64,000 nucleotides of DNA from an uncultured beta proteobacterium (GCA_963695355.1 OY968775.1:71983-135982); one strand, 5' to 3'; numbered from the stretch's first letter, positions 44,453 to 60,851 are shown. The notes: generated from the sequence alone by a model not told the origin. A program made the numbers and translations.

Positions 44453-44543
44453 GGAGAGGTGGATGAGCGGTTTAAGTCGCACGCCTGGAAAGCGTGTTTG
44501 GGATAATATCCCAACGGGGGTTCGAATCCCCCCTTCTCCGCCA
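44453..44543 (+). tRNA. tRNA-Ser(GGA), long variable arm, encoded CCA
   Basis: GGAGAGG/CUUCUCC acceptor stem, CACGC-CU GGA AA-GCGUG anticodon arm, GGUUCGAAUCC T-loop, ends GCCA. Confidence 0.98.
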
Positions 44544-44547
44544 TAGA

Positions 44548-44569
44548 CGTTCGGAATTTTGTGATATAA
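44548..44569 (+). repeat. Left sub-terminal inverted repeat
   Basis: cgttcggaattttgtgatataa, exact reverse complement of 60815-60836. Confidence 0.97.
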
Positions 44570-44705
44570 AAGCTCGATTTCGAAAACATTCCGCCCAAGC
44601 CAATCCGCGCCCATCTTGTTGTTAATATAGGGATTATCAGAATATCTTCGCTGGATGCCGTAAATAATTAGATTCTAAAATACCTAAAATTTGGATCTGA
44701 AGCAG

Positions 44706-44789
44706 GCCTAACTTTCATACCCCAATTTCCTGCTGTATTGAATAGCAACTTTTTGGCAGCAATATTTTGCGATTAGCATTCTGTTAGGT
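44706..44789 (+). other. Possible degenerate integron attC site
   Basis: R'' gcctaac (44706-44712), R' gttaggt (44783-44789), internal tgctg/cagca pairing; L boxes poorly matched. Confidence 0.4.
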
Positions 44790-45140
44790 GCCATAAGCAG
44801 AGCTCACATTTCTTTCCAAAAGGAGACATTCGTTCCTGCCCGTACTATCATGTGCGAAGGTGTGTTCGATGATTTTAGTATTCAGTTTGTAGGTGTGCTA
44901 AAAATACTTAACCGATTTAAATGAAAATATAGATTCGGCATGAAGAAGTTTGAAGTTAGTAACCGCTATTTTATCAAGTATTAATTGAAAAATAACATAC
45001 ACCGAGTTCAAACTTCATAGTGCCGAAGCAATAGCTCCCTACACAGCTAATTTATTATCCACCTGTCTTGATAAAAGATTAGGTCTTTTATTGGGGCCTA
45101 TATTCGTTAGGCAGGGCTTCATCGAGAGAGGTATTAAATT

Positions 45141-45644
45141 TTGAGCATGGAAAGTGTTTTATCAATAATTGGTTCAATTGCTTCTATTGGTGGAGCAATT
45201 TGGGCATTTATTGAAGCTAAAAAATCTACGAATGCAGCAACTAAATCAGAACGACTTCGTGATGAACTTATCCATCGAAGAAAAATGGTAGAGGTATCAC
45301 AAGTGCATTCAGAGACAACTAGAGTTTTATCTGTTGTATCCAAAGTTGGGCCTTCTTGTAATGCAAAGCTTCTCAAAGGTGTTAACTGTGCTGATATCGC
45401 AAAAGAGGTAGAGGTATATGCAAGGTTTATCTTAGAACAAAGCGGGCATTTCACTGATTTTTTCGAAAATAAAGCCAAAGAACTTTGTGCTGATTTAAAA
45501 AACGATATTGAAGCTTTGTCCGAAGCTATCAGTTTTGAAGACAAAAAAAATTACGGCAAAAGCATCTACTATAAAATTCAGAATTTTGTGCCCGCAGTTA
45601 AACAGCTCTCAGATGAAAAGAAAGAGCGAGCATTAGAGCTATAA
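45141..45644 (+). CDS. Hypothetical protein with N-terminal TM helix (cassette-borne)
   Basis: 167-aa ORF starting 28 bp after a GTTAGGC core site (45106-45112). Confidence 0.8.
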   Translation: MSMESVLSIIGSIASIGGAIWAFIEAKKSTNAATKSERLRDELIHRRKMVEVSQVHSETTRVLSVVSKVGPSCNAKLLKGVNCADIAKEVEVYARFILEQSGHFTDFFENKAKELCADLKNDIEALSEAISFEDKKNYGKSIYYKIQNFVPAVKQLSDEKKERALEL

Positions 45645-45658
45645 ATTAAGGAGTTATC

Positions 45659-46216
45659 ATGAAATTGACAGATGGTGAAAAGTTAATTGTTCTTATGCTA
45701 AGCGAGCTTTATGAAAAGCTTGGTGTAAATGGCGAAATAGAACCTGATTTCATTAAATCAGCTATTTTTAGCGATCAACTTTGGGGTATAAAATGGAAAT
45801 ATAGTGGTATTCCATTCGAAGAGTCAGAAGACCCAGAAATTGTAAAAGAAGTGGTTGATATTCTCGATATGTGGAGTTTCATTGAACGCGCCTATAGCCA
45901 ATTAAATGAAGAACAAAAGACTAAATTAGAAGCTGATGTTCCCTATTTTGGTCAAGATCCGAAATTTGTCGGTTTCGATGGCAATAATGAATCTGAATAT
46001 ATGGGAACAGCTATGTTTTTAGTAAATGAACTGGAAAGGTTTCAAGAATTTAGTGGCCGCAGCTTCAATTGCCACTCTCAATCAATAGATGGGTATCTCA
46101 GAATGTTGAGCGCATTCGAACCAATTCGTAAAACATTATCAAACAAGCCGTTAAACCTTGAGCAGTTAACTACAATTTTAAAAGAAATAACCCATCCCAG
46201 TAGAAGACAAGCCTAA
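45659..46216 (+). CDS. YfbU-family protein (cassette-borne)
   Basis: MKLTDGEKLIVLML, EVVDILDMW..IE, F.GFDGNNE..Y....FLV....RF, N.HS....Y.RML; stop codon lies inside GCCTAAC. Confidence 0.8.
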   Translation: MKLTDGEKLIVLMLSELYEKLGVNGEIEPDFIKSAIFSDQLWGIKWKYSGIPFEESEDPEIVKEVVDILDMWSFIERAYSQLNEEQKTKLEADVPYFGQDPKFVGFDGNNESEYMGTAMFLVNELERFQEFSGRSFNCHSQSIDGYLRMLSAFEPIRKTLSNKPLNLEQLTTILKEITHPSRRQA

Positions 46217-46250
46217 CAAAGCGTTCGTTCGGATGCTAACTACGCTGCGG
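46211..46250 (+). other. Truncated integron attC site (5' half)
   Basis: gcctaacaaagcgttcgttcggatgctaactacgctgcg: R'' box overlapping the ORF stop and exactly complementary to GTTAGGC at 45106; the 3' half is missing. Confidence 0.7.
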
Positions 46251-46259
46251 TCTGCACTT

Positions 46260-46560
46260 TGGAAACGCTACTGACCGCAATGTGCTGCCATATTTTATCA
46301 ACGTCGCAGGAAAACTGAATGTTTCAGGCTGGGATGCGAAAGAGCGACAATTGAGTTTTTCCAAGAAGTGCCAGGCCATCTGTATGGAACTAAAGTTGGA
46401 CTTCAATCCTTCGGTTGAGCCAAACGCTACCGCCATTCGGCTATTCGATTTGCGCAATGAGCTTGCCCATCCAAAGATGGTCACCGAGTCACTGAACGAA
46501 TTAATATCCCAGCAAGAATATGAGCGCCGACAAACTGAATTGGGGGGGGATAAGCCATCC
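46260..46560 (+). pseudogene. HEPN-like protein fragment
   Basis: YFINVAGK...W...ER.LS...K followed by LRNELAHPK (Rx4H); no intact N-terminus. Confidence 0.5.
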
Positions 46561-46929
46561 ATTGAGGGAACAGCTCACTCCTCTTGCAGTAGATCAGCTT
46601 ATTCAGTCCACCGAGGCTTACCGCTTGATGAAACAGTCGCGATGCTTAACACACACAAACCCAACGAAGAACAATTAAAGATGTTGACGTTAGGAATGGA
46701 AATGTTTGTGGGTGTGCTGGGTAATGTTGTTTCAGGCGTTGGCGAAAATAGGCATTGATACCACCATTATTAAAGGTATTCGATCCAAGTTTTATTAAGT
46801 TTTCAGCAGATTCCGTTTTGCTAATTAATAGCCCAACGTTGTCAAAATTGTCAGCTACAATGCAAAAAATATTGTTCTCAGTAAACTTTTTTTGTATTTC
46901 TTAAGACCTAATACGGCGCAGTTTTAATT

Positions 46930-48756
46930 ATGATCCTTGCCAAAATCCCACCTGTGAAGAGTCCGAGCCTGCCTGGATTCTCTATTGATGCGAACGTCTG
47001 TCTAAACCCTGCCTGCGAAAATTTCGGTGTCTCAGGAGAAGACATCCATCTGCCGGAAATCGGTTATGAATATAAGGACAACGATGAGGTCTTAAGATAC
47101 AAATGTAAGCGCTGCGGCCAATCCCACTCAGCCTTTAGCAATACCAGCGTGTTAGAAACTTTTCATCGCTGTCTTCAGAACTCGATACCCTACGCAAGCT
47201 GCCCAAATCCAGAGTGTAAAAATCATTTTGTAAACCTGTTTGAGCACTACCATGACGACCCGAGAGATAAGCGCGAAAAGCTTTATCGCATAAATGTCTC
47301 TGATGATGCCAAGGAGTATTATCAGGCTCGATGTCGTAGTTGCAATAAAACCTTCACCTTGTCAAAACCACTCCGTCTGCATATCAGTGAACGCAGATTC
47401 TGGCAGAAGGACATGGGTTTCTTCATTAAAGCTATCGTTAACAGCTCCGGGCCATCCATTGTCATGAACCTGGCAGAGGTTCATGGCGATCTCTACTATT
47501 CCCAGCTAACGGCTGCTTCGAATGCGTTACTCAATTACAACAACTTTCATCTCATCAATCTCTTGAAGCCCTCCGTTGCTCCTAAACTAATGCGGATTTA
47601 CACAGACTGTATCGTTTGCAGCATCAAGATGCACCGCAATGACCAAAGAGTTCAACTGATGAAAATCATTGTGTCAACTACTGAACTAGATGGCCGCTCA
47701 CTGATCCTCGCGTTCCACCCTTTGTTCGATCAGCAAGACATTGACGACAACATTATTGCGAACGATCACAAACAGCCATTGGAGCTACGGCGATATGAAT
47801 ATCTGAAACATCCATTCAATACTAAAAGGGATGAGAAGAATCCATTGCCTCCAATCGGGGTCGGTGGATCCTTCATGGAGGATTCATATGCCTACATGGG
47901 ACATTTTTTGGTATTAAGGAAACTTCTTGCCAAGGTAGAGTCATTACAGTTCTATATGGACGGTGAAGCTTCCCTATACAATGCTGCATTGACGGCCTTT
48001 TCCGATCGCATCAAACCCAATCACAACAAATCCAAAAGAAGTAGCTGTGATATCGTCGTGAAGGTATTGGAGAAAGATAAAAAAGCAACCCAAAATTACT
48101 CTCAGGTGAGGGACCAGGCTAGAAAATCCTTTCGAAAAGTCCATGCCGATTCGAAGCCGCCCGATGCCTCTCAATTACGCCGATTTTTATTGAGCGAAGA
48201 GATGCAACGGGTGAATGAGTCCATCAAAAATAGCAACACCAATAAGAGCAGAAAATTATTTACAGAACCACTCTCCAGAATTTACACAGTAGCAACCAGC
48301 AGGGCCAACACGACCGGTAAAGATTTTTGGGTAACCGACCTACTTAATGGTAAATCAAACCCGCCAGCCAGAATTTTGTGGTTAACCCGAACGACCGAAC
48401 ATGCAAATACAGACCATGAGCTCGACTTGTATCACAACTGTTCGCTCTTTTACATTGATAGTATATTTGGAGCCTTCCGACAGCGCTCCTCGTTGGTAGC
48501 TCGGCCTCAATTAACGGCATCAGGCCAAAGGAGCTATAACAGCAATCCCGAGTTACCTATCAATCTGATCCAGGATTTCACCATCAACGTAGCGTACTGG
48601 AATTTCTTCCTGAAATATCGAAGTGTGCCGAAAGAAACCATTGCCTATGTGCATGGCCTAGTCAAAAAGAAAGAATCTCCGGAGTTCAAAGTGGCTTTCC
48701 AGACCAGATATACCTTTGATAATGCGAAAAGGATAACCAAATGGCTTGGTATTTGA
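46930..48756 (+). CDS. Large multi-Zn-ribbon RNase-H-fold transposase-like protein, paralogue A
   Basis: CLNPAC/CKRC and CPNPEC/CRSC Zn ribbons, helical HTH-like segment, acidic motifs IYTD, FYMDGE, YIDSIF, and C-terminal VAYWNF...TIAYVHGL, all collinear with paralogue B. Confidence 0.7.
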   Translation: MILAKIPPVKSPSLPGFSIDANVCLNPACENFGVSGEDIHLPEIGYEYKDNDEVLRYKCKRCGQSHSAFSNTSVLETFHRCLQNSIPYASCPNPECKNHFVNLFEHYHDDPRDKREKLYRINVSDDAKEYYQARCRSCNKTFTLSKPLRLHISERRFWQKDMGFFIKAIVNSSGPSIVMNLAEVHGDLYYSQLTAASNALLNYNNFHLINLLKPSVAPKLMRIYTDCIVCSIKMHRNDQRVQLMKIIVSTTELDGRSLILAFHPLFDQQDIDDNIIANDHKQPLELRRYEYLKHPFNTKRDEKNPLPPIGVGGSFMEDSYAYMGHFLVLRKLLAKVESLQFYMDGEASLYNAALTAFSDRIKPNHNKSKRSSCDIVVKVLEKDKKATQNYSQVRDQARKSFRKVHADSKPPDASQLRRFLLSEEMQRVNESIKNSNTNKSRKLFTEPLSRIYTVATSRANTTGKDFWVTDLLNGKSNPPARILWLTRTTEHANTDHELDLYHNCSLFYIDSIFGAFRQRSSLVARPQLTASGQRSYNSNPELPINLIQDFTINVAYWNFFLKYRSVPKETIAYVHGLVKKKESPEFKVAFQTRYTFDNAKRITKWLGI

Positions 48757-49526
48757 GCGAGGTCGTCACCGATCTCTCCCCTGTCGTGGAGATCCTCAAG
48801 CTATACGATCAGACCACCGGATCATTCCCCGATGAAGAAAATAACGATGATTACAAAAAACGCCTAGTCCCGTTATTACGCCAGGCCACGTTTAATACCG
48901 ACCACATTGAAGCCGATAGCATCCCGGCAGCCTATGAGAATGATGAGTACAAATGGCTGGCATCCGGCTACCACGACCTTATCCGCAAACTGGGGCTTGT
49001 TAAGCTTAGCGTCGATAAGCTTGAGCGTGAGCATGGGTACTCTTTAGAACTGACAGAAGCAGGAAGACAGGTTCTCAACCAGCAGCTCACCTTATCCGAA
49101 CTCATGAAGGCCGGGTTGCCTGAATGGAGAAACGATGCCGGAATCCACCCCTATCCGATCATCCTAAAGCTCTTGTCGAATTTAAAACAGAGCAATCTTT
49201 ACCCTTGTGGTGGCCTGTTGCTGCTGGAGGTAATGATCGTTTTATTGAAGCTCAACCAACCGCATGGACACATTATCAATCTCTATGACCATATCCAGGA
49301 ATATAGAAAAGGGTTTTATCCTTACATGACTGGTGAGGTTCAAGTCGATCTGATCAACTATTCAGGTTTACTCTGGGAGAAGCTGAGCCAGGACTTATCC
49401 AACTACCATGCTGCCAATTACCCGGCTCGGGCAACATTGCAACTGATGATGTACGCGGGCGATTTAGCCTATGGCCCGGTACCCGATGAGATCTTTGGTC
49501 AGGTTCAGTACGTCACCATCGCCTAA
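48741..49526 (+). CDS. Putative AlwI-family restriction-endonuclease-like DNA-recognition (winged-helix) subunit
   Basis: LIRKLGLV...LELTEAGRQVL and IHPY.IILKLL.NL...LLLLEV resemble the AlwI-family N-terminal domain; overlaps paralogue A by 16 bp. Confidence 0.5.
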   Translation: MAWYLSEVVTDLSPVVEILKLYDQTTGSFPDEENNDDYKKRLVPLLRQATFNTDHIEADSIPAAYENDEYKWLASGYHDLIRKLGLVKLSVDKLEREHGYSLELTEAGRQVLNQQLTLSELMKAGLPEWRNDAGIHPYPIILKLLSNLKQSNLYPCGGLLLLEVMIVLLKLNQPHGHIINLYDHIQEYRKGFYPYMTGEVQVDLINYSGLLWEKLSQDLSNYHAANYPARATLQLMMYAGDLAYGPVPDEIFGQVQYVTIA

Positions 49527-49541
49527 TACGAGTCATTCATC

Positions 49542-50390
49542 ATGGTTGAAAACAACAAAACCATCGCCATCGGTACAGATAAAGATCCCTATAAGGTACC
49601 GCTGAACCTAAAACAGTTGTCGATATATATGCAATACATTATTCCGAATTCAAAGCGTGAAATGAAAGATATATTCGGTAAATTTGATCTCGATTCAGCT
49701 TCACGCAGAAAACAGCTGAACACCATCGACTTTAAAACCGATGCGGGTGAACGCATGACATTGCAGAAAATCAACAAAGGGCTCACGATGGAATTGTTCG
49801 CTAGCGGAATGTTCAGCTACTTCGATCATCCCTCAGAAGTGCATTCAAACTGTGTCGCAAATCGATATCACCCTCAAGGTGCAGTTGATAAGAACCAATA
49901 CCAAGTAGTGCCAAAAAATTATGCACCAGGGGGTATGCCGGATGTGCAGATTGACTATACGAATTTCATGGTGATGTTAGAGGTCAGTGCCAAGGAGAAG
50001 CCAACCTTAGGAGATTTGAGTAAACAATTTAACGGTGCATTAAAGCACGCACGCACAATCCGCGAAGATGGATATGATAAGCCTATCTATTGCCTAGTGA
50101 TCCACGAGCGCTCTTTGATGGAAACGAAAAATAAAACCGCGCTGAAAGAAGTCCTGGAAGTGATCAATCCATCAGAGCAGATCTATATCACCGCGATATC
50201 GATATTGGAATTTGCGGGTTTGGGGCAAGTGATGGCAGATACATACGAGAATGCCATTTCCATAATACAGAACGACAATTTACTTAGTGTCCTCAAGGCA
50301 ACCGTTGAAAAGGGTGTTGAGGGTAAGTTTCATGACGAATTCGTTAAATGCCTGAAAGACCTTAAACCCAAAGCTGCTCATGAATGGTGA
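49542..50390 (+). CDS. PD-(D/E)XK nuclease, AlwI/FokI-like catalytic subunit
   Basis: PKNYAPGGMPDVQI..Y...MLEVS...KH...YCLVI matches the AlwI-family pattern APGG.PD...EV; no methyltransferase nearby. Confidence 0.6.
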   Translation: MVENNKTIAIGTDKDPYKVPLNLKQLSIYMQYIIPNSKREMKDIFGKFDLDSASRRKQLNTIDFKTDAGERMTLQKINKGLTMELFASGMFSYFDHPSEVHSNCVANRYHPQGAVDKNQYQVVPKNYAPGGMPDVQIDYTNFMVMLEVSAKEKPTLGDLSKQFNGALKHARTIREDGYDKPIYCLVIHERSLMETKNKTALKEVLEVINPSEQIYITAISILEFAGLGQVMADTYENAISIIQNDNLLSVLKATVEKGVEGKFHDEFVKCLKDLKPKAAHEW

Positions 50391-50419
50391 CTTTGGAAGT
50401 TTGTGTGTGGATGTGACTG

Positions 50420-50748
50420 GAAGCATATTCCACTCGTTTTGAGATTTTCGACAGATTTTCGGCCTTAGCTGACGTGACTGGCTGGCTCATGTAGGTGTAA
50501 AGACAGCCTACATCACACCTGGCAGTCCATGGGAGAACGGTGACTGTGAAAGCTTCAACGGCACATTGCGTAATGAGTTGCTTGATGGAGATATCTTCTA
50601 TGGTGTCAAAGAAGCGCAGGTGTTGGTTGATCAGTGGGTCAGGCATTACAACACCACCAGGCCGCACAGTTCGTTGGGTTACAAGCCTCCTGCGCCAGAG
50701 GCTATCATCAACATGAACATACAAAATTTACACTCGGTGATGCACTGA
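50420..50748 (+). pseudogene. IS3-family transposase 3' remnant
   Basis: GVKTAYITPGSPWENGDCESFNGTLRNELLD...W..HYNT.RPHSSLGY.PP. Confidence 0.9.
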
Positions 50749-50905
50749 AGTATGATACAAATACTCTCACTTCAAGTGGTACTAAATTTGACGCAGTTCA
50801 TGACTTCAGCAACGAGCACCACCATGTCCGCAAAGCATAACGTAACTCTGTCAGGGGTTGGCAACCGTACCTTCGGGCGAAAGGTGTGAATGCAGGACTT
50901 AACGC

Positions 50906-53083
50906 CTACGTCGATAAATACAATCGCCACTGTTGAATTACTGATGCGGTCACTGCATCGCTCAACCATACTGCTTGTTGAAGAATTTTAGTATTCTCAT
51001 CATTGGGTAACTTTGGATTACATAATTGCTTGCACATATCCAGCAAGTTTTTATAGGGTATCGGACTTTTGCTGAATAGCGTGTTATGTCGATACAACCC
51101 TAACTCTTTTAACTGAGTGTTGAGAAGGGCTGCATAGATGTATTTTGAATAGCTTAAATTCAGCTCCATATTGACGTATTCACGAAACACGTCTGCCTCA
51201 ACGATGACATTTTCTACATTTAAAATCTCACGAATAACCTGCATGACGGCATCTGTGTCGATATTGCTAAAGGCTTTTTCAGTTGTGGTGTAAACCATTT
51301 TATCAACGCGAACCACTTTGCCTTCTTGCATCAAATTGCTGATATAAAATCCGGCATGACCTAAACTTTTGCTTTTCAATCGCTCAGCTATTTCCTGCTT
51401 AGTCATGGCTACTGTGGATTCATTAAGCACTTTTATGATGACATCGGCTTGGGTGATACGTTTTGAATCTGGATCAAGGCTTATGCTATCCGAACCTGAT
51501 TTGCCATCAAAGTAAAGTCCGTAATCTTCGCCATACTCTCTGACAAGATGGCGCAAAGTGAAGTACTCTATTTCGCTGCGTTGCCCTTTGGTTTGATAGT
51601 AATAGTCGTGCAAATGCGAAGCTGTTATTTGTTTTCGCTTAAAGTAATCAATCAGATGTTGCATGATTTCAGGGATGTCAAACTGCTCAAGGTCAAGAAA
51701 TATCAGATTTCGATAAGTTCCTTTGCCGCATAAATAAATATATTCGGAATCATTGAACCCATGAGTTGATCTAGTCTCATCTATTTGTGTTGATGCGCAC
51801 CCTTTTACATTTACTATTTTGGCAATATCTTTCCATGGCAATCCTTCGGGATGAGAAGTTAAGATATGAGCCACGGCCTTGCCTCTAGCAAGTTTCATTG
51901 GATAAATGCCTTGTTCAGTTACTTTAATGTTATGGGATTTCTCTAATTGGTTTATGCCGTGTATTGCTGATGCCTTGTCGTACCCATAATTCGACATCAA
52001 TTCATTGATGATAATTTCTTCGGCGACAGGGGAAGGCATAGAGCAGAACAGCGAGTCTATAATTTCAGTATGAATCTTGGTGAAAATTATCTTGCTAATG
52101 CTGCCTGTTTCAACTTGGCAACATAATTCAATAAGAGCGTAGAACAGCTTCTCTGTGGCAAAACATTTGGCTAATTTAGGCAATAACACCGTTAAATCTT
52201 CAATCATTCTTGCACGGATATTTGCCCATAATATTTTGGGTGGTATCGTCAAACGAAAAGGAAGATTGGCATTGATAGGCTGCTCAATTTGGCGTATCCG
52301 CTCTCTGGTTAGTGGCTTACCCTCGGTATTTTTATATCGACCTGCAACTTCCTCAAGCGTTTCATGTTGGTGATTGAATCCCCAGCGCGAAAGCGCAATA
52401 TCCGTTTTCATTTCATCCAATGTCCATAAATAGCTTTCAATGTCTTCAATGAGTACGTTATCTATCTCTTTAAATTCAATTAAGTTTAATGAGGTAAATT
52501 TTTCCGACTGCTCAAATAAAAGGTTGGGCAATTGTTTTTGCAATTTAATTAAACTTAAAGCATACAACTTGCCCACAGAAGGTAATTCAGCAAAGTGAGA
52601 CGAATCGAGATTAATGAGGTCTTGAACCGTGACTAAGTCGCCCACTGAAGCAGAAATTTTTCTTATGAGTTCTTGATATTGTGTTGGGAATACCACTTGC
52701 GCCAGATGAGTTTCTAGTTGTGCTAGTGAAAGTGTAATTTGAGGGGGTAATTCAAACGCGGCAGGCATCGTGCTTAAAGCATTTTCCTTGATATCAGAAC
52801 CTGGTTTGACTGTTGAGGCATTCATGTCAAGTGACAAGCCAATCTTGCCAAGACAGAGCTCGATTTCCCGCAGCGACTTAAGGCCTAAATTCTGGGCTTG
52901 CAGCAAACTATTTCTAGTGCATTGAACCAGATCTCGGATGTAATGAATATTTTGTTTCTTGAGGCAATTGTATGGGCGCGGTGGGAGATTCAGATTCTCA
53001 ATGGGGCGCTGAAAAATTGCGTCATTCTTACTAGATAAAAGCACTTGTCCATATTCCGAAGTATCCATTTCATTCATTTTCAT
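50906..53083 (-). CDS. RNAP alpha-CTD / sigma70 region-4 / multi-wHTH protein
   Basis: IENLNLPPRPYNCLKKQNIHYIRDLV...NLGLKSLREI (alpha-CTD), a second degenerate copy, and TLEEVAG...TRERIRQIE (sigma70 r4 HTH). Confidence 0.8.
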   Translation of the reverse strand: MKMNEMDTSEYGQVLLSSKNDAIFQRPIENLNLPPRPYNCLKKQNIHYIRDLVQCTRNSLLQAQNLGLKSLREIELCLGKIGLSLDMNASTVKPGSDIKENALSTMPAAFELPPQITLSLAQLETHLAQVVFPTQYQELIRKISASVGDLVTVQDLINLDSSHFAELPSVGKLYALSLIKLQKQLPNLLFEQSEKFTSLNLIEFKEIDNVLIEDIESYLWTLDEMKTDIALSRWGFNHQHETLEEVAGRYKNTEGKPLTRERIRQIEQPINANLPFRLTIPPKILWANIRARMIEDLTVLLPKLAKCFATEKLFYALIELCCQVETGSISKIIFTKIHTEIIDSLFCSMPSPVAEEIIINELMSNYGYDKASAIHGINQLEKSHNIKVTEQGIYPMKLARGKAVAHILTSHPEGLPWKDIAKIVNVKGCASTQIDETRSTHGFNDSEYIYLCGKGTYRNLIFLDLEQFDIPEIMQHLIDYFKRKQITASHLHDYYYQTKGQRSEIEYFTLRHLVREYGEDYGLYFDGKSGSDSISLDPDSKRITQADVIIKVLNESTVAMTKQEIAERLKSKSLGHAGFYISNLMQEGKVVRVDKMVYTTTEKAFSNIDTDAVMQVIREILNVENVIVEADVFREYVNMELNLSYSKYIYAALLNTQLKELGLYRHNTLFSKSPIPYKNLLDMCKQLCNPKLPNDENTKILQQAVWLSDAVTASVIQQWRLYLST

Positions 53084-55395
53084 TGTCCTGAATTATTTCT
53101 GTTCTTTTGCAGACAACTGAGAAAACGAAATTCTGAACTAAATACACGTTTAATTTCTGCTCTACCTTCGGCGGGTAGTTTTAATAAATCCTGCCTCGTC
53201 TTAATAATATTCAGATACTTTTCAATGAGCAAGGACTCTTCATTAATTTCGGCAATTTTTGAGATATTTGTCGGCGATACCTCAAGGGGTGCTGTGATGG
53301 CTTGTTGATTTAATTGAACGGAATTTATGGATAAAAAATTTCCTAATTCACTTTCATTACCCAACAAAAACTCGACCTCGGCTTCCGAGCAAGCAAGCAA
53401 ACCGTTATGTTGCTTAGCAAGGCTAATCGCTCTAAAACTTGGGCAGATGCGATTTTTTTGATAAAAGTTCTGCGCGTAATCCAAGCATATTTTACGAAAC
53501 ATACCTTGATCGTATTGCCCAATTAATGCGGCTTCCAGATAGCCAAAATACGAGTCAAAATGCGTAGCGATTTGGTCGGCAGTAACATCAGTCGAAATAC
53601 TTTCGATTTCATTCAGTTTGGGGATATGGTTGTTGTCCTCATAGTATCTTCGCAGCACCTCAATCACCTGCATTCGTGACTTCAAGCGATATTGCAGCTC
53701 TTCAATAAGTTGCAAAACTTGCGCGGCAGATTGGCTATAGCTCACTTCCAACGAAGAGTTATGCACGGTTTCCTTTTTATCGCGTGGCTCCCAATTTTCT
53801 TTTTCAATGGGTACGCGATTTACTCTTTTGCTGAGTTGGTGTACTTCGTTTAGCCGTTCCAATGAACCCACAAAATCTAATACATGAACGTAATCTTTGT
53901 TGGGTGTTTTGCGCAGTCCTCTGCCTAGTTGTTGCAGCCAGATCGTATGCGACCCCGTGTAACGCATAAAAACTAGCAGATTAGTTTCTGGAATATCAAT
54001 GCCTTCGTTGAATAAATCTCGTACCAAAATGTAACGATAATTCCCCTCACGGAAATCACGGATATTTTGCCAGCGTTGTGAATCACTCATTTGAGAATGT
54101 ACAAAGGTCGCGCTGCCTGGCGGGAAAAACTGAATCAGGTAAGTAATGTGTTGAATATTGCGGCAAAAGACAATCCCCTTGAGATTGCAGATTTGTTTTT
54201 CTTGTACGGTTTTTTCTATGATGCGGACAACTTCTTCGTCCTTTTTATGCAAGAACAGACGTTGGTCTAAATCGCTAATCGACATGCCATGATTCAGTTG
54301 GTCTATACGCGATTGATCCAAGTCATCAAGCAAAACCAAATACTTTGGAAATGCCAGTTTGTTATGACGCAATGCCCAAGCTAAATCATACTTGCCCACA
54401 TGACCTGCCGCACCACCAAAAAATGCTAGTACGTCTTTGTTATCCTCACGAAACGGTGTTGCGGTCAGGCCTATCAATAATTTTGGATGAAAATGCTCGA
54501 CGACTGTGGCATAAGTTCTGGCTGGGGTGTGATGAGCTTCATCAACCACTATCACGTCAAAAGTTTCCTTTTCCAGCGTGGCGATTTTGCTAAATAGCGT
54601 ATCGAAACTGCCAAACACAAAATCAGTTTGCTCTGGGTTTGCACCATCAAAACAGGCCGAAAATGAGTAAGTGCCAATACCCAAAACGTTTTTGAAGGCA
54701 GTAACCGATTGCAACAGTATTTCGACCTGATGCGCCAAGAACAGCACACGCTTAACTTTGCCCTGTTGCAATATCTGTTTTAGCAAATGGGCAACGGTAT
54801 AGGTTTTACCTAACCCTGTTGCCATTTCTATTAACAAACGATTATGCCCTGCATTAAAGCGCGTCAAGCTGTCCTGAATAACGGTTTCTTGGTATGTTCT
54901 GGGCTTGATATCCCGTCCGATTTCTGATTGCTTCTCAATCCACAAATTCTGCAAACTGTCACGATCAAGTAGCTCAACTCCAAGTCTTAACGCTCTTACT
55001 TTCACCTCGGAAGTAAAATAAGAATTTGTCACTAAAATCATGTTGACGACATTAGCGAGCTTTGCGCCCGTGACCAATTGATTTAATGCGCTTACGTCAA
55101 CTGTATCTCCGGCTTGCCTTTGCTTGACTTCAATCGCAAATTTTCGTTTGCTTTTATAGGCGAAAATATCAACACCACCATCACCATGCTTAAACTCCTT
55201 CCCTACTTTGGTAATAATTGCATCGCTCCAGCCAGCAGCCACAAAAACATCCCGGACGTAAATTTCAAAATCGGATGGAGATAGTTTATCTATCAGTTTG
55301 AATTCTGATAAAGCGGCTTTGTTCAGTGGCGGGCAAACACGATTTGTGTTGACATGATGTTTTCCACCGCCGACTTGTTTTTTGCCTGTTTTCAT
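53080..55395 (-). CDS. Mrr-family endonuclease fused to SF2 (ResIII/DEAH) helicase
   Basis: DFE.YV..VF...GDGGVD...IEVKQ...VTNS.FT (Mrr_cat); MATGLGKT, VDEAHH, GLTATP, FNEGIDIP, QQLGRGLR. Confidence 0.88.
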   Translation of the reverse strand: MKTGKKQVGGGKHHVNTNRVCPPLNKAALSEFKLIDKLSPSDFEIYVRDVFVAAGWSDAIITKVGKEFKHGDGGVDIFAYKSKRKFAIEVKQRQAGDTVDVSALNQLVTGAKLANVVNMILVTNSYFTSEVKVRALRLGVELLDRDSLQNLWIEKQSEIGRDIKPRTYQETVIQDSLTRFNAGHNRLLIEMATGLGKTYTVAHLLKQILQQGKVKRVLFLAHQVEILLQSVTAFKNVLGIGTYSFSACFDGANPEQTDFVFGSFDTLFSKIATLEKETFDVIVVDEAHHTPARTYATVVEHFHPKLLIGLTATPFREDNKDVLAFFGGAAGHVGKYDLAWALRHNKLAFPKYLVLLDDLDQSRIDQLNHGMSISDLDQRLFLHKKDEEVVRIIEKTVQEKQICNLKGIVFCRNIQHITYLIQFFPPGSATFVHSQMSDSQRWQNIRDFREGNYRYILVRDLFNEGIDIPETNLLVFMRYTGSHTIWLQQLGRGLRKTPNKDYVHVLDFVGSLERLNEVHQLSKRVNRVPIEKENWEPRDKKETVHNSSLEVSYSQSAAQVLQLIEELQYRLKSRMQVIEVLRRYYEDNNHIPKLNEIESISTDVTADQIATHFDSYFGYLEAALIGQYDQGMFRKICLDYAQNFYQKNRICPSFRAISLAKQHNGLLACSEAEVEFLLGNESELGNFLSINSVQLNQQAITAPLEVSPTNISKIAEINEESLLIEKYLNIIKTRQDLLKLPAEGRAEIKRVFSSEFRFLSCLQKNRNNSGQ

Positions 55396-55955
55396 TATTT
55401 CAGTGAAGAAGATGAAGTTGTAAAATTGAAAGCAAGTCTATAGCACTAGTGATATAGGTGTCGATAATTAGTGGCTTCACATATTGCAATCGATTCCTTC
55501 CATCTGCACAGGTTGCGGAGCGTTTAGTTGTTCGACATCGCAGCTAACACGTGAAAGTCATCCCACTCTCCTATCGAATGCATCTTATTCGCACTAATGG
55601 CATCTTTCAGGATGACTTGCTACAAGGGTCGACAATCCGCCAGTAGGTCGGGTGGCGAGCCTCTCCATTATCAGTTATTCCTCAAGCTGATTAAACTGCT
55701 TCAAAAATAATTCAATGACTACTTTGTAGAAGGGAGTATGAGCAAGCCTACAGCACTACAGCAATATATAAATGTCATTTACGGAACTTCAACTTGTTAT
55801 TTCATTTATTTTACGGCACGATTCTGTGATGAGAACGATTTTTCTATATTGTCATCAGTGAAAGAAATACGTAATGGTAAATTTCACCCCACCTACGGAA
55901 ATTGACGCTTCACAGCATAACTGCCTGCGCCCCTCACTTCAAAGTTAAATCCCAG

Positions 55956-56780
55956 ATGGCGATCCACCAACTCGATCTATTAGAGAATGCACTCGACAGC
56001 CTAGCTGAAGCACTGGCGAAGTTCGAAGAGGGCGATGCGGGAGAATCAAAGGCATACAAGTTCGCCATTTTACATATGGCGCACTTTATTGAACTTATTT
56101 TCAAACATCACATAGCACAAAAGCATCCGCTATTGATTTACAAGGATCCATTCGCGCAAAAGGTCGATAAGAACAAAACCATTACCCTTTGGGATGCGGT
56201 GAATTTTATCAACAACGAGGCGACAGACACAGTTTCTGCTGAGTTTCGTACCAACTTGGAATGGCTGAAGCGACTAAGAAACGAAATCGAACACCACAAA
56301 TTCACAATGGATGTGCCACAGGTGCGCATCACGTTGGGAAGACTGTTCCGATCAGTGCTTGAATTTCTTGAAAACTATAGCGGTGTTGAGATCGAATCTC
56401 ATATTCCCGACAACACAATGGATTCTTTCAAGGTGCTTTCTGACGAGTATGAGTTCCGACGACGCGATGCCATCCGTAAAGCAGAAGAAGTCGAAAAAGC
56501 AAACACATCAGACCACACTTCGGGCGAAGACGAGTCACCTGTGAGGCTTGATTGTCCCAATTGTGAGAACCCAACTCTGGTTATCAATGATGACTCTGAT
56601 ACGGGCTATCGTTGCACATTCTGCGAGAACGAAGATAGTGACGAGTTGCCCGCATGGTGCGACATTTGTAGCGTCCAAACCATCCATGGTGAACTCGTAT
56701 TTTGGGAAAGCGAGGCTGGTCAAACTGAAGGCCGCTGCTATTACTGCTCAGGTAGATACCGTGCTGAAAAAGATGACTAA
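55956..56780 (+). CDS. HEPN-like protein with C-terminal Zn ribbons
   Basis: AILHMAHFIELIFKH, LRNEIEHH (Rx4H), CPNC/CTFC/CDIC/CYYC; likely ATG at 55956. Confidence 0.65.
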   Translation: MAIHQLDLLENALDSLAEALAKFEEGDAGESKAYKFAILHMAHFIELIFKHHIAQKHPLLIYKDPFAQKVDKNKTITLWDAVNFINNEATDTVSAEFRTNLEWLKRLRNEIEHHKFTMDVPQVRITLGRLFRSVLEFLENYSGVEIESHIPDNTMDSFKVLSDEYEFRRRDAIRKAEEVEKANTSDHTSGEDESPVRLDCPNCENPTLVINDDSDTGYRCTFCENEDSDELPAWCDICSVQTIHGELVFWESEAGQTEGRCYYCSGRYRAEKDD

Positions 56781-56863
56781 ACTTTGGTCTAGCATGGTAT
56801 GTGCGAAAAGTCGCGCAGGCATGGTTGATTCTAAAGCCAGATTTCATAACATGAGCTGAGCTA

Positions 56864-57769
56864 ATGATTACAGAAAAATTGTATATTATTGGAAACGGTT
56901 TCGACATTTATCACGGGATACCATCGCGGTATACGGACTTTCGAACATATCTTGAACAGAGCGACCGGTCACTTTGTCAGAAGCTTGAGAACTACTTCAG
57001 TTACGAAGGATTATGGGCGGACTTTGAACAATCGCTGGCTGATTTCGATGCTGACAGATTGATTGAGGATGCGTCAAATTTTCTTGTTTCCTATGGGTCA
57101 GACGATTGGAGCGATTCATATCACCATGATTTTCAGTATGAGATTAATGAAGTGGTTGTCGCTTTATCACAGACATTGAAATTAAAGTTTGCGGAGTGGA
57201 TTGCACAACTACCAATCCCATCCGAGTTGGATATTAAAAATAAAAAGCTCGGTTGCATTGACAAAAATTCGACATTTTTGTCGTTCAACTATACAAACAC
57301 CCTTCAGGCAGCCTACTTAGTTTCAGACAGCCATGTGCTTCATATTCACATGAAATATCTAGTAAATGGCCCAGATTTAGTGCTGGGGCACGCTTGGAAG
57401 CCGGTCAAAAGAAATGCGTTAATGCATCAAGATGATCTTGAGCGGCAAGATGTCCGCATTGCCGAAGGCGACAAGATAATTGATAGATACTTCAAGACAA
57501 CCTACAAGCCAACGGAAGAAATTATAAAATTAAATGGCGAATACTTTGCGAGCTTGCGCCGAACAAAAGAAATTTATGTACTTGGGCACTCGATGTCGTG
57601 CGTTGACATTCCATACTTTCAAGAGATTGTGAGATCAATTGATGCGCGAAACACGAAGTGGTACATAAGCTACTTTGATGAGAAAGAGTTAGCAAGTCAT
57701 CAAGGAGCAATGAATGCCCTTGGCATTAGAGCAGAGTTGATAAATTTTTCTGACTTAAAGAGTATTTGA
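56864..57769 (+). CDS. abiH: AbiH-family (SIR2-like) abortive infection protein
   Basis: LYIIGNGFDIYHG..SRY.DF, FLSFNYT.TL, HIH...LGH, YVLGHSM..VD..YF. Confidence 0.85.
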   Translation: MITEKLYIIGNGFDIYHGIPSRYTDFRTYLEQSDRSLCQKLENYFSYEGLWADFEQSLADFDADRLIEDASNFLVSYGSDDWSDSYHHDFQYEINEVVVALSQTLKLKFAEWIAQLPIPSELDIKNKKLGCIDKNSTFLSFNYTNTLQAAYLVSDSHVLHIHMKYLVNGPDLVLGHAWKPVKRNALMHQDDLERQDVRIAEGDKIIDRYFKTTYKPTEEIIKLNGEYFASLRRTKEIYVLGHSMSCVDIPYFQEIVRSIDARNTKWYISYFDEKELASHQGAMNALGIRAELINFSDLKSI

Positions 57770-58040
57770 GTGAGTGTCTAAAGCGGGGAAAAGGTGTGTG
57801 ATTGGTTTTTATAAAGAAAATAGCCAGCCCGCAATTATACTGCCAGCTTTCCAGCTAAATAATTTTAGAGCAGTGAAGTGGGCAACTGCACTAATGAAGG
57901 CGATTGAGGACGCAAACGCAAAATGATAGATAGCGACTTCTGGGTTGCGCACATTGTCCAGCATTGAACAAAGAGGCCTTTGATAAAAACTCTGAATATA
58001 GGAGAATGAGGAATTGGCGAATAGCAACAAACATTAATTA

Positions 58041-58577
58041 ATGATAGCTTGGGAAGCATTTAAATATCGGGGAGTCGAGTACGATTTAACTCATCTTCAC
58101 CCATGCCGTCTCCAGTATATTCAATCGGAAAAATCTGGTCAGCCAGAAAGAAGATATATCGTTGAAGTCTGCTACAGCTTGCACTGCTTTACAAAAACAT
58201 TTTCAACCGCAGCAGACCCACATCTTAACTATAGTGATGCAAGAGAGACTCGAACTTTTGATCTTGAAAGATACGAATTATCTAAACAACTACCGCAAAT
58301 CATCCAAGACCTGAGTTCTAAAAGATGTATGCATACGGGAAAGGGAAATTTCTTTGTGGTTGAAGTTGTTACTTCAAGCGGTGCTAAAGAAGATTACGAG
58401 GTGTATTTTGATGTCCAGAATTCAAGTGCCAAGGGAATGATTGCACGCCTCTTTGTACAAAGTGCTTATGTCAGAGATGAAAAGCATATCAACAGATTAG
58501 CCGCCACCAAAAAAATATCGCTGTTTGTGATTCTGAATAATAAGCAAACAGGAAAGCCGATTAAAATGCCGCAGTAG
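58041..58577 (+). CDS. Hypothetical protein, putative RNase toxin (BECR-like, tentative)
   Basis: 178-aa ORF with YDLTHLHP, HCFT, R.FD.ERYELSKQLP and RLFVQSAY; faces a convergent structured RNA. Confidence 0.6.
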   Translation: MIAWEAFKYRGVEYDLTHLHPCRLQYIQSEKSGQPERRYIVEVCYSLHCFTKTFSTAADPHLNYSDARETRTFDLERYELSKQLPQIIQDLSSKRCMHTGKGNFFVVEVVTSSGAKEDYEVYFDVQNSSAKGMIARLFVQSAYVRDEKHINRLAATKKISLFVILNNKQTGKPIKMPQ

Positions 58578-58579
58578 AA

Positions 58580-58710
58580 ACGGTTAAGGCTCCTTACGGA
58601 GCCTTAACTTTGATACTAACCGAACCTCTTAGAATATCTGCACTTGGGCGGAAACCATTTCTGGCGGGATCACTGCACGGCTTTCACCGCATTCGGTTTA
58701 TACAATGACA
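58580..58710 (-). ncRNA. Putative ~130-nt structured RNA (candidate RNA antitoxin)
   Basis: Enclosing stem AACCGAA/UUCGGUU, hairpins GCGGU-GAAA-GCCGU and CCA-GAAA-UGG, upstream sigma70 promoter, downstream terminator. Confidence 0.6.
58583..58608. terminator. Hairpin terminator shared by the convergent ORF and RNA
   Basis: Perfect 11-bp stem gttaaggctcc-ttac-ggagccttaac with short T/A tracts on both sides. Confidence 0.8.
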
Positions 58711-58715
58711 TGGGC

Positions 58716-58744
58716 AATATATTCCTAAATGACGAACCCGTCAA
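58716..58744 (-). promoter_or_regulatory. Sigma70 promoter driving the putative RNA
   Basis: Minus strand TTGACG (58744-58739), 17-bp spacer, TATATT (58721-58716); no ORF follows before the terminator. Confidence 0.7.
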
Positions 58745-58856
58745 TATCTATTCCGCCATCACAATCTGACCGTACCGTCGTGTGAATTGACTGTTGTTGG
58801 CGACGATTGGAGGGTAATCTCAAGCGTGTTGGCACCCTTAGTACGCTTGACCGCAG

Positions 58857-60737
58857 TTATAAGCGCATTCCTTTCCTACGTTTTCTGGGTGCTCTCGGTA
58901 TCTTCTGTCCGGGCCACAACACATCATCGTAATGCAAAGGTTTATTAGTTAGCCCAAGCCGCATAGCTGGCGTCATTTTGTCATCATCACTGATCTTGAT
59001 GAAATTATGATAAACCCGAAGCAGACTCAGATATTGCTCCACCATCTTTGGATTGTAGGGTGCGTAACCGTGCCAGACCGTGTTGTAGCCGCTTGAAGTG
59101 CCAATCGGGCGCTCAAATGCATTTATCAATCGCCTCGAAATTTGAAAAATATTATCCACGGCATTGATGCCTGCATCGAGGTACATCTGTGCCCTGGTCA
59201 AATCGTCATAGTCATTGTCGCTTCGCTCAGTTAACCAGCATATAGCTTTATCCGGTTCGTTCATTGACGGAAGAGGATGGGTCACCCATTTATCCTTCCA
59301 TTTACCAATGTTCGCTGCCCCTACTATGTTGTCGTGCATCAACCATAATTTAGCCTGATCCCGTTTGTTTGCGGGTAAATTGGACGAGTAGTCTGACAGG
59401 ATCTGTTGTGCCTTTTCACACCGACCCTCTTTATCTGGAGTGGTCAGGAATTTCGAATAGCGAACATAGAAACCGTGGGCTTGACCAGATTTGATTTCTT
59501 TTTCAAATGCCGAGATAAATCCGGCCCTGAGCATGGAATCGCAATCCATGTAATAGAATAATTTCTCTACCCCTGCCCCCTTGACCAGCATATGCATCAT
59601 TTGAAAATGGGCATAGCTGGTATACGGCACATGAACTTGCATGCCTTTGGTCAAGATGGGATTGCAGTAATCCAAATCCATATTTTGTTGCTCACGATTC
59701 TCAACATCCTTGCGAGATTGTGCTGCAACATAAACATCATTGATCTGTTGCAAGATATCCTGAGCCTTTGTTAAACCGAGTCGCTGACCAAGCTTGCGGC
59801 CAGCCAGAAACTCATCACAAGTCATCCAATATTGTGCGTGCTGTCTAAATGCTTCCGGTCTCAACGCGTCACCGTTCATCGAGGCTTCTTTGTTGATCGT
59901 GTAGGAATCGGCATCCTTATCGTAGTTTGCACACATGCCAAGGATAAAGCGGCTATCCTGATCAACCGTACACACAGTTGAAAATTCAGCGTTACGCCGA
60001 TCATGCTTATTAGTCCAGTTGAGTTGATACTCCTGGACATCGACTGATAGCCTGAGGGTTTTGGGAAGCAATATCTCACCATTGATCATACGTCGGTCAA
60101 ACAATCCTGATAATTGGTTGCAGCGACGATGGACAAAATCGAGTAAAGAGTAATAGTTTTCATTGCTTTGGATAGACATCCCCCTGATAGCGCATCGAAC
60201 TGGGGATTTGTTGGCGACACGGCTGAATAAATCCGATGCCATATGCCTGTTCTTTGGATGAATACGAACTGGTTGTGAAGCCAACATCCGTTTCTTGCAA
60301 GCCTTGCATACATATAGCTGCTCTCCGGTGACCGAGTGAACCCCTGCCCTACTGTAAAGCTCAGGATACTCACCAACAGTACATCCGCAATTCGGACATC
60401 CAACCGTCTTGCACGCGAGTAATTCGGTCGTCGTAAGCACTGAATGGGTGATGCGCTCAAATTCAGCGGATATACCGGTATTGGATTTGATTGGAATCTT
60501 CTCGTTGCATGACTTACACAGGATGGCCGGAATACGACCTTCTGATGTGTTTGTTACTTTGTAATGAGTATCGCGATCGGGGCTCGGGCCAGGTTTACCA
60601 GGCTGTTCTCTGGCAGGGATACCAAAGTTATCACATTGAGGGTTTTTGCAAAAATTGACCTGCAGTGGCATGGCCGGACTGGCCCCCAATTTCAGTTGGG
60701 AGGTCGGCGGAATACGAAAATTTGTTGGCTGAACCAT
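58857..60737 (-). CDS. Large multi-Zn-ribbon RNase-H-fold transposase-like protein, paralogue B
   Basis: NFCKNPQC/CKSC and CKTVGC/CKAC Zn ribbons, HTH-like segment, LSVD, YYMDCD, NAVDNIF..SRR, VYHNF...MTPAMRLGL (IS1-like tail); starts 77 bp inside the right IR. Confidence 0.75.
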   Translation of the reverse strand: MVQPTNFRIPPTSQLKLGASPAMPLQVNFCKNPQCDNFGIPAREQPGKPGPSPDRDTHYKVTNTSEGRIPAILCKSCNEKIPIKSNTGISAEFERITHSVLTTTELLACKTVGCPNCGCTVGEYPELYSRAGVHSVTGEQLYVCKACKKRMLASQPVRIHPKNRHMASDLFSRVANKSPVRCAIRGMSIQSNENYYSLLDFVHRRCNQLSGLFDRRMINGEILLPKTLRLSVDVQEYQLNWTNKHDRRNAEFSTVCTVDQDSRFILGMCANYDKDADSYTINKEASMNGDALRPEAFRQHAQYWMTCDEFLAGRKLGQRLGLTKAQDILQQINDVYVAAQSRKDVENREQQNMDLDYCNPILTKGMQVHVPYTSYAHFQMMHMLVKGAGVEKLFYYMDCDSMLRAGFISAFEKEIKSGQAHGFYVRYSKFLTTPDKEGRCEKAQQILSDYSSNLPANKRDQAKLWLMHDNIVGAANIGKWKDKWVTHPLPSMNEPDKAICWLTERSDNDYDDLTRAQMYLDAGINAVDNIFQISRRLINAFERPIGTSSGYNTVWHGYAPYNPKMVEQYLSLLRVYHNFIKISDDDKMTPAMRLGLTNKPLHYDDVLWPGQKIPRAPRKRRKGMRL

Positions 60738-60814
60738 AATTATCTCGACTTTTCACATTTAAGTGGAAATATTAAAAGCATGTAACATACTGCTTGCTTT
60801 ACATATTTTAGTCA

Positions 60815-60836
60815 TTATATCACAAAATTCCGAACG
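60815..60836 (-). repeat. Right sub-terminal inverted repeat
   Basis: ttatatcacaaaattccgaacg, followed by ggtag and the ttctccgcca duplicate. Confidence 0.97.
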
Positions 60837-60851
60837 GGTAGTTCTCCGCCA

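Follow-up and report, generated by a model that had tools for sequence, protein, structure and literature searches.

Why should one mobile element carry two large transposase-like genes that face each other, and which of them moves it? The question is raised by a 64,000-nucleotide (nt) stretch of the genome of an uncultured beta proteobacterium (GCA_963695355.1 OY968775.1:71983-135982; hereafter the window), where two convergent open reading frames (ORFs), A (608 aa, plus strand) and B (626 aa, minus strand), lie within a 16.3-kb element at 44544-60841 (Table 1). The original prediction, made from the sequence of the window, took A and B for deeply diverged paralogues with an Asp-Asp-Asp (D-D-D) triad and one shared pair of ends, possibly forming a heteromeric transposase or dividing catalysis and target selection between them. 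We find that A and B are ancient paralogues of a zinc (Zn)-ribbon D-D-D transposase superfamily without prior characterisation, and that the element transposes with a 10-bp target duplication and strongly, though not exclusively, favours the 3' ends of tRNA-Ser genes as sites. As to how the work is shared, we favour, at about even confidence, a reading in which B is the core transposase and A belongs, with two further genes (P0003 and P0004), to a conserved accessory module of the transposition machinery.

Two ancient paralogues with a conserved D-D-D triad

A and B are full-length homologues with ~22% identity. BLASTP aligned them in two collinear segments of 22-25% identity, one covering the N-terminal Zn ribbons (E 5e-9) and the other the C-terminal half (E 3e-7). 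When the family profiles, built from 26 A-type sequences (31-76% identical) and 44 B-type sequences (29-91% identical), were compared by hhalign, they matched with a probability of 100% and E 1.4e-44 over 524 aligned columns, the first, second and third Asp of one family being paired with those of the other. The motif-by-motif correspondence that had been proposed between the two proteins was thus confirmed, as was their convergent orientation.

The triad is strictly conserved in both families. D226, D344 and D510, together with R517, are invariant among the A-type sequences down to 31% identity, as are the cysteines C24, C29, C59, C62, C91, C96, C135 and C138. Among the B-type sequences, D233, D398, D528 and R535 are invariant, as are C74, C77, C114, C144 and C147, with C30, C35 and C109 nearly so. 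Each family has eight such cysteines, arranged in two Cx4C...CxxC ribbons, and an Arg seven residues past the third Asp. The two ribbons and the Asp, rather than Glu, at the third position were therefore correctly recognised in the original prediction, and so was the C-terminal region around YWNF/YHNF, where conserved residues are found in both families (N558, A572 and G576 in A; N578 and T589-G595 in B).

In a search of 1.84 billion representatives at E <= 0.001, the A-family profile recovered 648 clusters at 50% identity, which form a superfamily of proteins of ~600 aa. In a tree of 90 of its members, an A and a B superclade are set apart by a branch that measures 1.36 changes per column, in agreement with the view that the two genes do not stem from a recent duplication. 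Searches of Pfam, NCBIfam, PADLOC and PDB sequences with A and B gave no significant match, the sole trace in the family searches being DUF6399 at the C-terminus of B (E 0.0045).

The predicted structures point to an RNase-H-like core. AlphaFold models of A (predicted local distance difference test, pLDDT, 70; predicted template-modelling score, pTM, 0.76) and B (pLDDT 83, pTM 0.85) both present the order beta1-beta2-beta3-alpha1-beta4-alpha2-beta5; the first Asp is on beta1, the second follows beta4, and the third lies where a later helix starts. In the A model these elements comprise strands 220-233 (carrying D226), 241-253 and 256-264, helix 318-332, strand 338-343 (followed by D344), helix 347-356, strand 376-380 and helix 510-519 (D510); in the B model the triad is borne by strands 227-237 (D233) and 392-398 (D398) and by helix 525-537 (D528). 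Foldseek searches of the PDB returned Tn5 transposase as the top match for both proteins (probability 0.91 and E 0.01 for B; E 0.4 for A), followed by piggyBac, TnsB, MuA, Transib and Argonaute, and nothing at E <= 0.001 for either model. The expectation of an RNase-H fold agrees with the predicted order of strands and helices, the structural matches being weak. Tn5/IS50 transposase (PDB 1MUH), the nearest structural neighbour of the B model, resembles it in its RNase-H-like core, into which a further segment is inserted between the second and the third acidic residue. However, the match reaches an E of only 0.01 and a TM-score of 0.24-0.31 and comes without sequence similarity, and Tn5 transposase is unlike the A/B element in its Asp-Asp-Glu (DDE) triad, its lack of Zn ribbons, its action as a homodimer and its little site preference.

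The likeness to IS1 that the original prediction saw in the C-terminal tail proved weak. A and B matched no IS1 model (NF033558, PF03400) at E <= 0.1, and hhalign found no relation between the B family and Escherichia coli InsB (probability 0.2%). Distant relatives of B do match NF033558 and NF050000 at E 1e-10 to 1e-5, with scores of 28-41 bits over the N-terminal part, against a cut-off of 100; the highest, 41 bits against NF033558 (the NCBIfam IS1 model), was obtained by a clade of ~590-aa proteins over the Zn-ribbon/helix-turn-helix part. This is a faint resemblance, which does not establish family membership. IS1 has terminal inverted repeats (IRs) of ~23 bp and target duplications in the range of 8-10 bp, to which the 22-nt repeats and 10-bp duplication described below come close, and its proteins share with A and B an N-terminal Zn-binding motif followed by a helical DNA-binding region. 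In contrast, A and B are ~2.7 times longer than InsA/InsAB', are encoded by single ORFs without frameshift and have Asp, not Glu, as third catalytic residue. IS1 is a ~0.8-kb element producing InsA/InsAB' by -1 frameshifting, whereas the element studied here has 16.3 kb, the related insertion sequences (ISs) have 2.0-2.7 kb, and both site-specific insertion and cargo are present, unlike in IS1.

One pair of ends and a tRNA-Ser target

The element is delimited by a perfect IR (22/22 complementary), and no further copy of the end motif was found in the window at up to 3 mismatches, 0.05 being expected by chance; A and B are thus served by a single IR pair, as had been claimed. GC content is 0.40-0.45 inside the element and 0.48-0.50 outside. 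The left end (LE) starts with the tip TAGA directly after the CCA end of a tRNA-Ser(GGA) gene, so that the 22-nt IR (CGTTCGGAATTTTGTGATATAA) begins 4 nt past it. The right end (RE) carries the IR, the tip GGTA and one extra G (60841), an additional base ahead of the duplication being always present at right ends. LE and RE have ~25-27 bp in common (TAGGCGTTCGGAATTTTGTGATA...) and then diverge into different conserved blocks: GATTTCGAnAAA and ...AAATAATTAGATTC in the 8 left ends aligned, CAATAAGTT and GCCACTTAAATG in the 6 right ends. The start codon of B lies 78 bp inside the right IR, from which the gene reads inward, and the IR itself holds TGTGATATAAT, an extended -10-like motif reading toward B, from which B is possibly transcribed. 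For one element (L016), a right end was looked for and not found.

The last 10 bp of the tRNA gene (TTCTCCGCCA) are repeated immediately beyond RE, so that the tRNA is left intact. Three genomes of the same genus have the corresponding empty site, where the tRNA is directly followed by the right flank of the window (AATCAAT...). In a Thiodiazotropha metagenome-assembled genome (MAG), the tRNA ends in CTCTCCGCCA and the copy past the right end also reads CTCTCCGCCA; the presence of the same local variant on both sides indicates that the duplication is copied from the target, and an element-borne repeat or attachment (att) core was rejected on this ground. Left ends adjoin a tRNA-Ser gene in 6 of 8 A-type cases, with anticodons GGA, GCT or CGA. 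One further A-type left end (L071, 9790-9830) adjoins a 20-nt tRNA-Ser 3' fragment (GGATCCCTCTCTCTCCGCCA), which implies that a short tRNA 3' remnant suffices as target. That contig has no tRNA gene within 10 kb, and another defence island lies ahead of the insertion (AAA_21/RloB, DUF1156/DUF499, MNT-HEPN). In another case, a tRNA-Ser 1.7 kb away is unoccupied and the element lies at the end of a gene for a periplasmic binding protein, between flanks GAAAAAAGTA and GAAAAAAGTG that have 9 of 10 bases in common. In E. coli, tRNA-Ser genes end in ...CTCCGCCA-type sequences.

These data bear on whether the region could instead be an integrative island moved by a recombinase encoded elsewhere, with the tRNA repeat as att core. 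A tRNA 3' end with a direct repeat is indeed the hallmark of many integrase-borne islands. Such a reading is nevertheless hardly credible here, given that no integrase is encoded among the window proteins that fall within the element, that the termini are long inverted repeats, that the repeat has exactly 10 bp in all cases and reproduces the local sequence, and that one insertion is not at a tRNA at all.

TTCCGAA, the core of the RE IR, and TTCGAA of the tRNA T-loop both precede the insertion point by 17 nt (window 60815-60841 and 44521-44543). The likeness may be a coincidence, or the target may resemble the element's own end.

The same arrangement, tRNA-Ser / LE - A - P0003 - P0004 - cargo - B (reversed) - RE / duplication, is shared by at least five other elements, among them those of an 877-kb metagenomic contig and of a 38.5-kb contig, each with different cargo, and that of a Thiodiazotropha contig (C92), in which A and B are both decayed. 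In GCA_003934915, A is found at the end of one contig and B at the end of another, as would be expected of a single element that was split, and in a Thiodiazotropha taylori MAG the locus tags of A, the P0004 homologue and B are 01845, 01830 and 01815, respectively. A and B occur 1:1 in every resolved window-type element. Their trees are congruent for the four available pairs, with the 877-kb contig as partner of the window in each, and the order by identity is the same for A (67/63/61%) and B (79/76/76%). The co-occurrence asked of the two types by the original prediction was observed in these elements.

This recurrence also speaks to the possibility of a composite transposon, in which an independent A-type IS and an independent B-type IS would flank captured genes. 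Convergent transposase genes at two ends are what such an origin would produce, and single-gene ISs of the B type do exist (see below). We consider it very improbable, as the 16.3 kb hold one end pair and no internal copies at 3 mismatches, A has no IRs of its own, and the same order recurs with A and B co-diverging and the cargo changing. The lack of internal ends led us to reject it.

The A module, B-only relatives and the division of labour

A heads a conserved operon of three genes, A-P0003-P0004, that the original prediction had missed. P0003 and P0004 accompany A in every A-type locus, at 53-67% identity. No match or recognisable domain was obtained for the P0003 profile in the PDB and Pfam. 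The P0004 profile matched the nicking enzyme N.BspD6I in its FokI-like cleavage domain (E 8.6e-4), RE_AlwI matched 6 of 19 P0004 members, and PADLOC returned weak matches to HEC-02B and REase_II; E84, D134 and E147 are invariant in the family and K151 nearly so. The P0004 family forms 48 clusters, all at least 52% identical and on the same contigs as A and B, and its distribution matches that of A. In all elements other than that of the window, A starts ~180 bp from LE.

The linkage of the three genes persists when A itself has diverged to 23-27% identity: in a Pseudomonadales MAG, A (23%) is followed by a P0003-P0004 fusion, and in another contig (L069), A (27%) is followed by both genes. A B-type gene, 44-51% identical to B and on the same strand as A, is found near both of these distant loci, and the module was never seen away from B-type genes in the loci examined. 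On the Pseudomonadales chromosome, the distant B gene (L052, 10138-12265) is accompanied by an RE-like end and a CCCTCCGCCA fragment, and the distant A gene (L053, 497-4145) lies on that strand too, ~8 kb downstream, together with an LE-like end and the fused P0003-P0004; L069 has the same co-directional order.

B, for its part, has relatives that do without A. The B superclade comprises three groups: the B proteins of dual elements, a 45-51% identical clade at tRNA-Ser, and the ~590-aa clade, whose members are single-gene ISs of 2.0 kb with 54-nt IRs. At tRNA-Ser, members of the 45-51% clade stand in tandem as 2.7-kb units, up to five per array, which have the end motif of the window-type element (CGTTCnnnnnTTTGTG) and the 10-bp repeat at the array junctions examined. 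In one such array (L056, 1-12367, and L057; ENA contig_5, 987 kb), five tandem single-gene units encode B-like proteins of 627, 628 and 634 aa on one strand and end at tRNA-Ser(GCT), the 10-bp tRNA repeat being seen at the junction examined. Two of the five units in L056, designated P0088-type, retain a 30-aa relic of an A-type N-terminus (E 2e-9) on the opposite strand between B and LE, and identical copies of such units are present at several places. Judging from this relic, these 2.7-kb B-only units are deletion derivatives of dual elements that multiplied without A in cis. Mimicry of the tRNA T-arm (GGTTCGAAT) by the IR (CGTTCGGAAT) was weighed as an explanation of the tandem arrays and set aside because the arrays are explained by repeated insertion at an intact tRNA and because one element lies at a 20-nt tRNA fragment without T-loop.

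Another member of the superfamily, WP_181726989.1, is annotated as a 650-aa 'insertion element protein' and matches the B family over its full length (hhalign 100%, E 1e-41). It adjoins the trimethoprim resistance gene dfrG on the Enterococcus faecium plasmid pAT44-a (NZ_CP097028.1; L076, 1328-3280), and near-identical copies are found on ~100 plasmids of Enterococcus, Staphylococcus, Listeria and Lactococcus. It differs from the window element in being a single gene, not located at tRNA-Ser and without A module, and in the hhalign alignment its residue opposite the third Asp is not acidic.

What, then, does each protein do? An obligate heteromeric transposase, in which A processes LE and B processes RE, or each cleaves one strand, and neither is active alone, is possible though doubtful. 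It would account for the 1:1 ratio and co-divergence of A and B in resolved window-type elements, for the invariant triads kept by both, for ends that agree over only ~25 bp before entering different conserved blocks, and for the fixed placement of A at LE and B at RE. Against it, identical 2.7-kb B-only units have multiplied at tRNA-Ser (A acting in trans being conceivable), the sister clades of B are ordinary single-transposase ISs, and the terminal 22 nt are identical at both ends, such that one protein could bind both. Furthermore, the 877-kb contig holds a second, tandem element of 27 kb in which B is intact and A has been truncated after ~103 codons by an insertion of the IS6 family (DDE_Tnp_IS240; L008, 8720-9700). 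Of the heteromer or division of labour suggested in the original prediction, co-occurrence, co-divergence and both triads are thus borne out, whereas the autonomous ISs of the B clade and the multiplied B-only units argue the other way. Its proviso that the two types should not occur independently with their own ends holds only in part, since the B type occurs alone, as a 2.0-kb IS with 54-nt IRs.

At the opposite extreme, A-P0003-P0004 might not be transposition machinery at all. It would then consist of a domesticated transposase-like DNA binder and a methylase-less FokI/AlwI-like nuclease, and serve as a defence, addiction or homing cassette, for instance by cutting foreign DNA or unoccupied tRNA-Ser sites. 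The rest of the cargo is all defence-related, P0004 resembles restriction nickases and weakly matches HEC-02B and REase_II, and loss of the module did not stop multiplication. We nevertheless judge both the general proposal and such a cassette function unlikely: the position next to LE is fixed across unrelated cargo contexts, whereas true cargo varies, the catalytic triad has been strictly kept over deep divergence, and the association with B-type genes is unbroken in the loci examined.

The reading that we favour, with B as core transposase and the A module as accessory machinery, takes both bodies of evidence into account. The autonomous single-gene ISs of the B clade and the multiplied 2.7-kb derivatives lacking A argue for B as the core; the fixed distance of ~180 bp from LE, the invariant triad, the old association with P0003-P0004 and the distinct LE and RE blocks argue for the A module as part of the machinery. 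The element is then a cut- or copy-and-insert transposon of a family without earlier description. Insertion takes place exactly behind the CCA terminus of tRNA-Ser genes, in most cases with LE on the tRNA side, and the conserved core consists of four genes, with the A-P0003-P0004 operon at LE and B alone at RE. B would recognise the shared 22-27-bp terminal repeats as well as the tRNA-Ser target. The A module, with its second, catalytically intact D-D-D paralogue, P0003 and a FokI-like nickase, would most likely act in LE-specific synapsis or in second-strand cleavage. This would turn an IS-type reaction into the clean excision of a large cargo element, a role analogous to that of TnsA alongside TnsB in Tn7. 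The module would be helpful without being indispensable in cis.

Several points weigh against this proposal. The role assigned to A is drawn entirely from its position and conservation, and the multiplication of B-only units makes it conceivable that A has no part in transposition. The co-directional B...A layout in two distant lineages is not explained by the proposed architecture. The assignment of P0004 as a FokI-like nuclease is marginal, its motif being E-x-S-x-K and not the canonical (D/E)-x-K, and the RNase-H fold of A and B is a prediction from the topology of AlphaFold models and from low-scoring Foldseek matches. Finally, the co-occurrence count is small, at about 6 resolved elements.

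Cargo, likeness to Tn7 and significance

Between P0004 and B, the element carries a region of variable defence cargo (Table 1). An overlapping pair of minus-strand genes at its left looks like a candidate two-gene defence system. The cargo of other elements is different each time and includes restriction-modification systems, SNIPE, RES-Xre, Abi_C and AAA_15/21.

Table 1. Coordinates of the element and its features in the window.
Feature	Coordinates	Strand	Description	Basis
tRNA-Ser(GGA)	44453-44543	+	Insertion target	ARAGORN
Left duplication copy	44534-44543		TTCTCCGCCA, last 10 bp of the tRNA gene	
Element	44544-60841		16.3 kb	
Left end (LE)	44544-44700	+		Sequence; alignment of 8 left ends
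Left IR	44548-44569		22 nt	
Insert	44701-46929	+	2.2 kb, three ORFs, between LE block and A	Present only in the window element
Insert ORF 1	45141-45644			
Insert ORF 2	45659-46216		YfbU domain	
Insert ORF 3	46282-46758			
A	46930-48756	+	D-D-D paralogue: two Zn ribbons, helical block, predicted RNase-H-like core	Homology, AlphaFold
P0003	48741-49526	+	261 aa, overlaps A stop codon	Conserved with A
P0004	49542-50390	+	282 aa, putative FokI / N.BspD6I-like PD-(D/E)xK cleavage domain	Profile match
Defence cargo	50906-58577	mixed	Variable region	
725-aa protein	50906-53083	-	RpoA C-terminal domain (RpoA-CTD) and sigma-70 region-4-like segment	Weak MzaA match
771-aa protein	53080-55395	-	Mrr_cat and ResIII/Helicase_C	PADLOC type IV mREase model, E 2e-52
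DUF3644 protein	55902-56780	+	C-terminal Zn ribbons	
AbiH homologue	56864-57769	+		E 3e-68
178-aa ORF	58041-58577	+		
B	58857-60737	-	D-D-D paralogue	Homology, AlphaFold
Right end (RE)	60738-60841	-		Sequence; alignment of 6 right ends
Right IR	60815-60836		22 nt	
Right duplication copy	60842-60851	+	TTCTCCGCCA, 10 bp	Direct repeat; empty sites in congeners

As a whole, the element recalls Tn7: both are large, with cargo that often consists of defence genes and with asymmetric left and right ends; both insert in a site- and orientation-specific manner just downstream of a conserved gene, which is not inactivated, and accumulate in tandem at the site; and both have a multi-protein core, in which an RNase-H-type transposase would here, too, be combined with a nuclease of restriction-endonuclease fold, the putative nuclease P0004. 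The fold of TnsA is FokI-like. In contrast to Tn7, the core genes include no rve/Mu-type TnsB, AAA+ TnsC or TniQ/TnsD in Pfam and NCBIfam scans, two paralogous Zn-ribbon D-D-D transposases taking the place of this set; the duplication is 10 bp instead of 5 bp, and the target is the 3' end of tRNA-Ser. A Tn7-like division of labour that evolved independently, with A, B and the FokI-like nickase acting as one heteromeric transpososome, is a tentative proposal in which we place low confidence. Such a complex would cut out the large defence-cargo element and place it, with single-base precision and in one orientation, at tRNA-Ser 3' ends. If true, this would be the first transposase made of two paralogous catalytic subunits, comparable to XerC/XerD among the recombinases.

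Literature searches (for ISMhu11, for the IS1 family with tRNA-Ser, and for paired, heteromeric or paralogous transposases) returned no description of such an element, and Pfam and NCBIfam include no family for any of the four core proteins. Site-specific transposons of the DDE type that carry cargo and have a core of several proteins are a known kind; what is new here is the enzymes, the target, the duplication of 10 bp and the pairing of paralogues.

The analysis defines an unannotated transposon family, within a superfamily of ~650 clusters at 50% identity that is also represented beside dfrG on resistance plasmids of Gram-positive bacteria. The family accounts for a class of defence islands that lack an integrase and lie at tRNA-Ser genes of sulfur-oxidising and other Proteobacteria. 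The compact protein set, with its base-precise, orientation-specific and tRNA-sparing insertion, is of interest for tools for site-specific DNA insertion, and two catalytically intact paralogues together with a putative nickase provide a testable case of how simple ISs may give rise to multi-subunit cargo transposons.

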